Shown: positions 59,084 to 60,464 of the stretch, piece after piece
Numbering within the stretch: the stretch's first letter is position 1
How the letters are laid out: each line of letters opens with the position of its first letter
Origin: Candidatus Bathyarchaeia archaeon
GTDB taxonomy: Archaea; Thermoproteota; Bathyarchaeia; 40CM-2-53-6
Assembly (NCBI GenBank): GCA_050013255.1
Contig: JBEKFP010000003.1
Location: 160,001 to 224,000, forward strand
DNA length: 64,000 nucleotides
Direction: 5' to 3'
Translations under genes and position numbers: made by a program
The notes under the pieces: generated by a model
What the model was told of the DNA's origin: nothing
Seen by the model: only the letters and a program-made list of their open reading frames with translations
The model's database searches: none

Positions 59084-59698
59084 TCACAGTTTAGTAGCGA
59101 TTTTCTCGATGAAGTTCTCAAGGATTCGCTTGCCTGCCAAGTTCTCTTCGTTCCATCTCTCTGGGTGGAATTGTACGCCGTACAAGGGTTTCTGCTCATG
59201 CTTCATCGCCTCATTTTTCGTATCTTTGGATCTCGCAATTCGCACGAAACCCGGTGGCAGGCGCTTCACTACCTCATAGTGACTTTGCATCACCCTGATC
59301 TTTGCTGGCAACCCCGCCAAGAGGTGATCCTTGTCTTCGAGTTCAACCGTCCGAAAGCCATCAACATGATGGCCTGACTTTGCCACTTCACCACCATAAG
59401 CGATTGCCAGCGCCTGATGGCCGCCGCATATTCCCAATGTCGGGGTCTCGATTTTGGGAAGGAAGGCGAAGAGATTCTCGAATTCCTTCCGGTCGGCTGT
59501 TCGCGTGAACAATGCTTCTGTGCCGCTGAGTATGATGCCGTCGTAGCTGGTGAGTTGGGATGGGTCAAGGTCGGGTAATCTTGCATGGTCAGAAATTGAG
59601 ACTTCTACACCAAGCGTCTTGACTCTCGTTACGAGTTTGTTGAAACTTAGCTTACGTTTAGGGCCAAGGAAGAGGTTCACGACTAGGATCTGCTTCAT
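59084..59698 (-). CDS. Class I glutamine amidotransferase (GMP synthase subunit A-like)
   Basis: GIILSG, LGICGGHQ, SH, GVQFHPE. Confidence 0.88.
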   Translation of the reverse strand: MKQILVVNLFLGPKRKLSFNKLVTRVKTLGVEVSISDHARLPDLDPSQLTSYDGIILSGTEALFTRTADRKEFENLFAFLPKIETPTLGICGGHQALAIAYGGEVAKSGHHVDGFRTVELEDKDHLLAGLPAKIRVMQSHYEVVKRLPPGFVRIARSKDTKNEAMKHEQKPLYGVQFHPERWNEENLAGKRILENFIEKIATKL

Positions 59699-59709
59699 CC
59701 GTCACAGCA

Positions 59710-60083
59710 CCAGGGATTTGTCTCGGGGGCATTTCCATGCGCGTGCATTTTGGTGTTGCGTCTATCGGTTCTGTCAAGTCTTCGCCTGCTTGACTCATCC
59801 GCATCGACTTTGGGCGTTACCGTCAGTCGCGGGCTACCCTACCATCGCTTCACTTGCAGACGCGACGGCCCCGAACCTCAGGGCTCTCATCCGGCATCCA
59901 CCGGATCAGCTAGACCATTCGCGCAGTCAGGGTTTTACGCTCGGTCAAAGCAGCCAGTTACCCAACATCGGCCCAGTCGGCTAATTCGGGCGAAAGCCCA
60001 TATACCGCCGTTGACTCGGCTTCATCGACTGATGACTTGCATGCGTTGATCCAGGAGGCAATGGCCCCTTGAGCAAATCTTGG
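59710..60083 (-). ncRNA. Candidate large structured RNA of unknown family
   Basis: Long terminal pairing, multiple hairpins with minus-strand G-U pairs, K-turn, loop-loop complementarity; no credible CDS. Confidence 0.5.
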
Positions 60084-60212
60084 ATGAGAGCAACGTGCAT
60101 TAGTTCAAAACCTCTGCATTTTTCATCAATGTGAAGAGAACCTAGTGAAATTATGTGTACCAAAACATAAATTTACAGGCATTCCACACTGTGGGACTGA
60201 GGACACTAAAAA

Positions 60213-60464
60213 ATGCCACTCTACATGGACATACATTACAAGATTACCGGGCTTACGGCGGAGGCGATTATGGCCGCACATGCAAAGGATCTTCAGGTTC
60301 AGGGAAAATACGGAGTGAAATATCTGAAGTACTGGTTCGACGAGTCGACGGGCAAAGCGTTTTGTATGATCGATGCCCCCAACAAAGAAGCCGCCGCAGC
60401 AGTCCACCGAGAGGCACATGGTCTCGTTGCGGACGAGATCGTTGAGGTTAAAGAAGGCGCCTAG
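60213..60464 (+). CDS. DUF4242 / SCO4226-like protein
   Basis: MPLYMDIH, AH.KDL.VQ, YW.DE..GK.FC, VHREAHG. Confidence 0.88.
   Translation: MPLYMDIHYKITGLTAEAIMAAHAKDLQVQGKYGVKYLKYWFDESTGKAFCMIDAPNKEAAAAVHREAHGLVADEIVEVKEGA

Follow-up and report, generated by a model that had tools for sequence, protein, structure and literature searches.

The window analysed here, 64,000 nucleotides from the genome of an uncultured Bathyarchaeia archaeon (G000), contains a gap between two divergent genes that raises a simple question: does it hold an undescribed RNA of the cell? A class-I glutamine amidotransferase (GATase) gene (PF00117) lies at 59084..59698 on the minus strand, and an SCO4226-like gene lies at 60213-60464 on the plus strand. 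The GC content of the gap between them is 0.59-0.61, against about 0.50 around it. A preliminary description placed a large structured RNA on the minus strand at 59710-60083 and suggested that it was new in kind, either an RNA bound by L7Ae, a ribozyme or a cis-regulatory leader of the GATase gene.

The open reading frames that cross the region (59550-59984 and 59750-60049 on the plus strand, 59981-60163 on the minus strand) have no match in Pfam. The last of these is a 19-codon stub of a KaiC-like gene read on into the structured segment. A scan for promoters and terminators of the bacterial type, which is ill-suited to archaea, found nothing. The preliminary description had also noted that signatures of RNase P, SRP, tmRNA and introns are absent. 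This is confirmed by the cmscan search that it proposed: at the gathering score, the whole window has no match to any family in Rfam 15, archaeal RNase P (RF00373) included. When 59600-60250 was searched at E<=10, only a meaningless 14-bit match to an lncRNA appeared.

Single-sequence folding gives a first indication of structure. Compared with shuffled sequences, the MFE of the minus strand has a z score of -1.69 and that of the plus strand -0.61. Because the minus-strand value is only marginally unusual, the observation would be weak on single-sequence evidence alone.

Related sequences are more informative. The segment 59700-60100 was searched in its own genome and in 40 relatives, and only its middle part, about 59767-60037, proved to be repeated. 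This core has nine matches in its own genome and is present in 15 of 24 other genomes of the same family, with most genomes of the same genus carrying copies; in 16 genomes from other families of the order, there was no match. On the minus strand, the core (59767..60036) runs from GTCATCAG... to ...GACTTGACAGAACC.

BLAST, together with an nhmmer profile of the 280-position core, lists six copies in G000 that have no gene, the window copy included. The closest, at C1:262260-262529, is 89% identical to the window copy. Others lie at C1:668681-668959, at C2:426183-426484 and at C2:477538-477819, the last within a mini-element that spans C2:477462-477819. One further copy, at C2:82882-83527 (L023:1304-2028), carries an insert of about 375 nt in the 5' domain of the RNA. 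Inside this insert is an antisense ORF of 109 amino acids (L023:1481-1810), with no Pfam match at E<=0.1.

Full copies of this gene-less kind are about 350 bp long and have inverted ends of the IS6 type, GGTTCTGTTAAC, with target duplications of 8-9 bp. Such inverted ends (GGTTCTGT...) and direct repeats of 8-9 bp are found at five complete gene-less copies in G000 and five in relatives. Seven elements of 1.25-1.34 kb that carry only a tnpB gene have the same ends and the same 8-9 bp duplications. The left-end consensus is (G/A)G(T/C)TCTGT(T/C)AAC, and the right end is its reverse complement, ...ACAGAACC; in one element the inverted repeat is perfect over up to 24 bp. Full copies also have a left arm of about 76 nt, where the left repeat is accompanied by a TATA-like box (TTTAATT, CCTAAAGG or CTTAATTC). 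This box is located about 30 nt before GTCATCAG and recurs upstream of tnpB in full elements.

The family therefore consists of many dispersed, short, non-coding copies, as expected of a MITE. Many copies with target-site duplications, a pattern that the preliminary description had itself set against its proposal, are what the search found. Two solitary GTTAACAGAACC ends, which adjoin neither a tnpB gene nor a full mini-element, occur in G000 at C1:421820 (L029, about 2821-2832) and at C2:479453-479464 (L030, about 954-965), the second of them 1.6 kb from the mini-element at C2:477462-477819. They may be broken ends or further scars of rearrangement.

Insertion sites have a common feature. In 15 of 16 independent insertions, the three nucleotides before the left duplication read [A/T]T[A/G] (W-T-R), a motif with a frequency of 0.055 in the genome (P about 2e-18). 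Since a guide would begin with the duplicated 8 nt, this position suits a TAM.

Ten core copies from five genomes were aligned (alignment A1), and a second alignment (A2) joined the 3' domain to the 3' ends of eight tnpB genes. In A1, the consensus structure comprises 78 base pairs in 16 helices. Of all cells in the paired columns, 96.6% are paired, compared with 27-42% when the partners are slid by one to three columns. Compensatory changes occur in 26 of the 78 pairs, compared with 1-10 after sliding, and none of 500 shuffles reached the observed values. The search for homologues and covariation that had been suggested thus gave copies in relatives and a covarying fold.

The window copy keeps 75 of the 78 consensus pairs, nine of them G-U, and each copy uses 8-13 G-U pairs. 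Because of these pairs, the fold exists only on the strand that is sense for tnpB, which is the minus strand of the window, in line with the earlier remark that several stems need G-U pairs working on that strand only. The dense, strand-specific RNA structure at 59767-60036 is real, with its main support in the comparison of the ten copies, and selection on the fold in the element family is clear. The structured RNA of the preliminary description stands in this sense, within the limits 59767-60036 rather than 59710-60083.

The scaffold can be divided into two domains. The 5' domain (59913..60035, minus strand), defined by covarying helices and the nhmmer profile, contains a hairpin at 60022-60035 and a long-range helix between 60013-60020 and 59971-59978, with five covarying pairs, which closes around a hairpin at 59987-60000. 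It also includes a possible contact of ACCC (59930-59933) with GGGU (59960-59963); both sides are invariant, hence no covariation signal is available for these bases, which may pair. The 3' domain (59767..59915, minus strand) can be aligned to the last 150 nt or so of tnpB genes and includes the hairpin 59886-59909. At its end, the right terminal inverted repeat (59767..59794, minus strand), with the tip ...TTGACAGAACC, forms a terminal hairpin in which 59789-59794 takes part. This is helix 16, which covaries, and the conserved structure stops there, 6 nt before the last base of the repeat. The same terminus is found on the MITEs, on the TnpB elements and on a 3.1-kb element that encodes a DDE transposase.

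Several details proposed from the single sequence can be judged against this consensus. Of eight hairpins, five (59773-59794, 59868-59884, 59889-59906, 59988-59999 and 60022-60035) correspond to covarying helices, whereas those at 59826-59866, 59921-59940 and 60007-60020 are alternatives specific to this copy that other copies are unable to form. A K-turn had been suspected in the hairpin 59886-59909. Its stem runs on without a break, having one conserved 1x1 G/G mismatch but no 3-nt bulge, and the A that a K-turn would leave unpaired is part of a covarying Watson-Crick pair (G-C 6, A-U 3, U-A 1). A loop-loop contact between ACCCU and AGGGU fails as well, having no single register across the copies and drawing its AGGG from a covarying helix. 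Likewise, a pairing of 59971-59979 with 59805-59815 conflicts with covarying helix 2.

The MFE fold does contain the outermost pairs (59715-59733 with 60060-60079, and 59739-59747 with 60038-60046), but what they bring together is unrelated host flanks. One side comes from the GATase upstream region and the other from codons 7-14 of the KaiC-like stub; since these two sequences are at different loci in relatives, their pairing is an accident of rearrangement. The reverse complement of 59700-59766 resembles 60060-60085 at about 19 of 27 positions, also in the versions of the relatives. The apparent closing helix follows from this similarity between the GATase upstream region and the 5' coding sequence of the KaiC-like gene, a similarity that is taken to be chance.

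Two partial matches to the core in G000 reveal where the structured sequence comes from. They are located at the 3' ends of tnpB ORFs of 404 and 383 amino acids (L021:1707-2921 and L022:1602-2753), whose products have the Cas12f1-like TNB domain (PF07282) and match solved structures of Cas12f and of ISDra2 TnpB. The genome has one intact 404-aa tnpB gene, at C2:62206-63417. In nhmmer, the profile of the gene-less core aligns with the 3' region of this gene over profile positions 31-280, and the core aligns to the last 250 nt or so of both ORFs and of six tnpB elements from relatives. The similarity begins in the codons of the zinc-finger CxxC. From the profile alignment and this starting point, it follows that the core corresponds to about the last 250 nt of tnpB. 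The stop codon of tnpB is the TAA inside the right repeat. In alignment A2, the 3' domain and the tnpB 3' ends have their central helices in common, with compensatory changes; over this domain, the scaffold of the window and that of the intact TnpB element share only about 80% identity.

In characterised systems, it is the 3' end of tnpB that encodes the guide RNA of the protein (omega RNA or reRNA; Karvelis 2021, PMC8612924; Nakagawa 2023, PMC10097598). In the present family, the RNA overlaps the 3' end of tnpB on the sense strand, although the window copy itself has no tnpB. The scaffold of the predicted RNA ends at the right end of the element, and its secondary structure is backed by covariation. 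By position, strand and homology to the 3' ends of tnpB, the core thus appears to be the scaffold of a TnpB omega RNA (reRNA). Because no Rfam model matches, the sequence is not directly tied to any omega RNA characterised so far; a model for this lineage may be missing from Rfam. The RNA is not undescribed in kind, since tnpB genes encode an RNA of homologous fold at their 3' ends.

A candidate for the enzyme that moves these elements can be found in the same genome. The 3.1-kb element mentioned above, at C1:182371-185509 (L028:872-4010), has the tips GGTTCTGTCAAA and an 8-bp duplication, CGCATCAG, and its 12-nt tips are the same as those of the MITEs and the TnpB elements. Its transposase gene (C1:183284-184531), the single intact copy in G000, specifies a DDE_Tnp_IS240 protein of 416 aa that includes a SWIM zinc finger. 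The element is far longer than members of the IS6 family, which are typically about 800 bp. It also holds four small ORFs (106, 153, 92 and 161 aa) that have no Pfam match. The three nucleotides before its duplication are GTC. Because this single DDE element lacks W-T-R, the preference for W-T-R may be either the transposase's or TnpB's own.

The hallmarks of IS6 elements are GG tips, the motifs cTGTt and caaa, and direct repeats of 8 bp (Varani 2021, PMC7986276), and the ends of the family, GGTTCTGTTAAC or GGTTCTGTCAAA with 8-bp duplications, fit them. A second copy of an IS6-type transposase, at C2:560136-561359, is 54% identical and has one in-frame TAG, and many short C-terminal fragments of such transposases are scattered over about ten further places in G000. 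Such remnants indicate that IS6-type elements have been active, and have decayed, in G000 for a long time.

Together, these observations suggest how the family may have come about. The MITEs very probably arose by internal deletion from the tnpB-only elements of 1.25-1.34 kb with IS6-type repeats. A full MITE has kept three parts: the left end, including the TATA-like box of the tnpB promoter region; a few bases at the start of the transcribed sequence; and about 250 nt from the 3' end of tnpB. Their RNA would be transcribed from the promoter in the left arm, through the right end and into the flank. TnpB made by full elements, such as that at C2:62206-63417, would bind this RNA in trans, and the RNA would guide it to the uninserted version of the element's own site, with W-T-R serving as the TAM. 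Mobilisation in trans, of tnpB elements and mini-elements alike, is probably the work of the IS6-family DDE transposase.

A different function of the fold is conceivable. It might serve the transposon otherwise than as a guide for TnpB, as an RNA or DNA structure used in transposition or its control, for instance as an antisense or decoy RNA that titrates TnpB, as a stability element, or as the target of the antisense gene that has invaded one copy. Clear selection on the fold is compatible with such a role, as is the copy whose 5' domain carries the insert of about 375 nt. In addition, copy-in transposition of the IS6 type leaves no excised donor, so that the classical rationale of "restorative homing" is weaker here (PMC13565253). 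The scaffold, however, adjoins the right end, an arrangement common, to our knowledge, to every known TnpB system, and W-T-R is found exactly where a TAM is required. Through its G-U pairs, the structure is specific to one strand, which argues for RNA and against duplex DNA. Moreover, IS6-type transposases need terminal repeats only (Varani 2021, PMC7986276). A role other than guiding is therefore considered quite unlikely, and the fold is treated below as a guide-RNA scaffold.

The copy in the window differs from its full sister copies. These have terminal inverted repeats at both ends and a target duplication, whereas the window copy has the right repeat only. The left inverted repeat is absent, as is the whole left arm of about 76 nt with its TATA-like box, and so is the second copy of the target duplication, of which only the right one, GATAGACG, remains. 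A candidate for the left inverted repeat, GGTTCTCTTCAC near 60140, was rejected, since in relatives that have no element it is host sequence of a promoter region.

At the right boundary, the insertion can be traced through two relatives used for comparison of the locus, G004 and G014. From 59766 down to 59054, the window is colinear with both at 91-94%, and the homology ends exactly at 59766, one base past the right repeat. At this boundary, G004 reads ...cctgag followed by GATAGACGcaacacc. Because the homology stops exactly at 59766/59767, the loci in G004 and G014 are empty sites. The right flank (59747..59766, minus strand), which would be the guide, reads GATAGACGCAACACCAAAAT, and its first 8 nt are the expected copy of the target duplication. 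At the empty site, GATAGACG is preceded by GAG in G004 and by a different triplet in G014, neither of them W-T-R, and at its own site the guide-like flank is preceded by ACC, again not W-T-R. A second match for the flank was not found in the window's own genome.

The left boundary is formed by a damaged gene. The KaiC-like ATPase stub (60043..60100, minus strand) comprises 19 codons and one nucleotide of a 244-aa gene, the rest having been deleted. In three relatives (L020:1501-2235, L007 and L008), the KaiC-like gene, recognised by Pfam KaiC, is intact and adjoins the same SCO4226-like gene. A tblastn search for the missing part elsewhere in G000 found only paralogues at 44-55% identity. The genome has about ten KaiC-like paralogues, with clusters at C2:588926-593592 and C1:1355499-1357093. 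Only six bases, the hexamer ATGCAA (60037..60042, minus strand), separate the stub from GTCATCAG, and BLAST homology to the sister copies begins at 60036/60037.

From this comparison of sequences, 59767-60036 on the minus strand is very probably a 5'-truncated, immobile copy of a gene-less MITE of about 350 bp that carries the scaffold of a TnpB omega RNA. Its insertion, in the lineage of G000, would have taken place 68 nt before the start of the amidotransferase gene. A later deletion or rearrangement would then have removed the left end, the promoter and all but 19 codons of the KaiC-like gene.

The proposal that the element is a cis-regulatory leader or riboswitch of the glutamine amidotransferase gene can be judged at the same boundary. 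The element shares the strand of the gene, and its right end precedes the ATG by 68 nt, rather than by about 12 nt as the preliminary description had it; transcripts reading through from the KaiC stub would enter the gene. In G004 and G014, however, the GATase orthologues have no element; beyond 59766, their upstream regions continue as unrelated sequence. Other copies of the element are found in unrelated contexts, and the helix that seemed to close the structure draws on the sequence of a different gene. A leader function is accordingly very improbable.

A free-standing, undescribed cellular RNA encoded once at this place, whether a K-turn RNA bound by L7Ae, a ribozyme or an RNA like that of RNase P, is scarcely credible, for although high GC content, dense pairing and ORFs with no Pfam match would suit it, the sequence is multi-copy with transposon ends and target duplications, is homologous to the 3' ends of tnpB, contradicts K-turn geometry by its covarying pair and its missing bulge, and has no meaningful Rfam match even at E<=10, while the genome has its normal RNase P RNA at C1:1403419-1403713 (175 bits).

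With a truncated MITE as the preferred reading, the present state of the window copy can be considered. Because its left end is gone, it is immobile and has lost its own putative promoter. Its expression is uncertain, since left repeat, duplication copy and TATA-like box are all missing, and it would now be transcribable only by read-through from the promoter of the KaiC-like gene. Most likely, the copy is an inert relic with an intact scaffold, although transcription that reads through from the KaiC-like promoter might yet produce scaffold RNA.

An unlikely possibility is that the window copy, though no longer mobile, has captured the promoter and start of the KaiC-like gene for its own expression, and that the resulting omega RNA, with the fixed guide GAUAGACGCAACACCA..., programmes TnpB made elsewhere. 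If so, the locus would be a stationary "guide gene" directed against the ancestral, uninserted allele of the site before the amidotransferase gene. This would be a step towards domesticated use of a transposon RNA of the CRISPR or TldR kind. If the copy is expressed, its read-through transcript might now also influence the amidotransferase gene, by driving or by modulating its expression.

For annotation, the immediate consequence is that a false lead to a novel ribozyme or riboswitch is removed at this spot. Omega-RNA scaffolds left behind by transposons resemble orphan structured RNAs and are thus a source of such leads. The family appears to be a natural case of a TnpB guide-RNA module on ends of the IS6 type (DDE, copy-in). 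Its gene-less mini-elements persist under selection for the RNA fold, with W-T-R where a TAM would be needed. This makes it a system in which two questions can be tested: of what use is an RNA-guided nuclease to a transposon that does not excise, and do the MITEs parasitise TnpB in trans? The window copy further suggests that such elements mark the breakpoints of rearrangements, here with loss of a KaiC-like gene, and that rearrangement at them can fuse an intact scaffold to a foreign promoter.

Among known systems, the omega RNA of ISDra2-type TnpB (IS200/IS605) offers the closest parallel for the RNA. In both, it lies on the tnpB-sense strand, overlaps the 3' end of tnpB and forms a scaffold of many helices. 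This scaffold ends at the right end of the transposon, so that the adjacent flank becomes the guide. The associated protein here likewise has a Cas12f1-like TNB domain and matches the structures of ISDra2 TnpB. In contrast, the present scaffold is longer, at about 270 nt with an extra 5' domain, it has no detectable similarity to a characterised omega RNA, and the RNA gene in the window stands without tnpB. The ends differ as well: those of IS200/IS605 elements are asymmetric hairpins, whereas the present ends are inverted repeats with 8-bp duplications.

TnpB is also known in association with DDE transposases. One survey describes TnpB branches that have inverted ends and a DDE transposase (DDE-1 to DDE-6). 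It also describes solo TnpBs whose ends are the same; a transposase whose gene lies elsewhere is presumed to move these in trans (Altae-Tran 2023, PMC10691335). As described there, the present TnpB is bounded by inverted repeats, and no more than 250 bp separate its 3' end from the end of the element. A 2026 review names IS630, ISL2 and IS1031 as DDE partners and calls such associations rare in prokaryotes (PMC13565253). The ends and the candidate partner here are instead of the IS6 type. In the passages of PMC10691335 and PMC13565253 that were consulted, we found no mention of IS6-type ends with TnpB, though supplementary files may list a case, or of gene-less derivatives that keep only the RNA.

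Likeness to the IS6/IS26 family extends from the GG tips, the cTGTt and caaa motifs and the 8-bp direct repeats to a DDE_Tnp_IS240 transposase with a zinc-finger N-terminal extension, encoded inside an element with the same tips. Members of this family cause adjacent deletions and rearrangements, and IS6 MITEs of 227 and 336 bp are known that consist of ends only (Varani 2021, PMC7986276). Unlike these, the MITE described here carries a conserved structured RNA derived from tnpB, and the window copy lacks one end.

Gene-less derivatives of IS200/IS605 elements, called PATEs, and stand-alone omega RNAs used in trans have reportedly been described. In the same manner, the present mini-elements are short, non-autonomous derivatives that keep the RNA-coding right part of a TnpB/IscB element and would rely on proteins made elsewhere. 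PATEs, however, have hairpin ends, no target duplication and a Y1 transposase, whereas the elements described here would be moved by a transposase of the IS6 DDE type.
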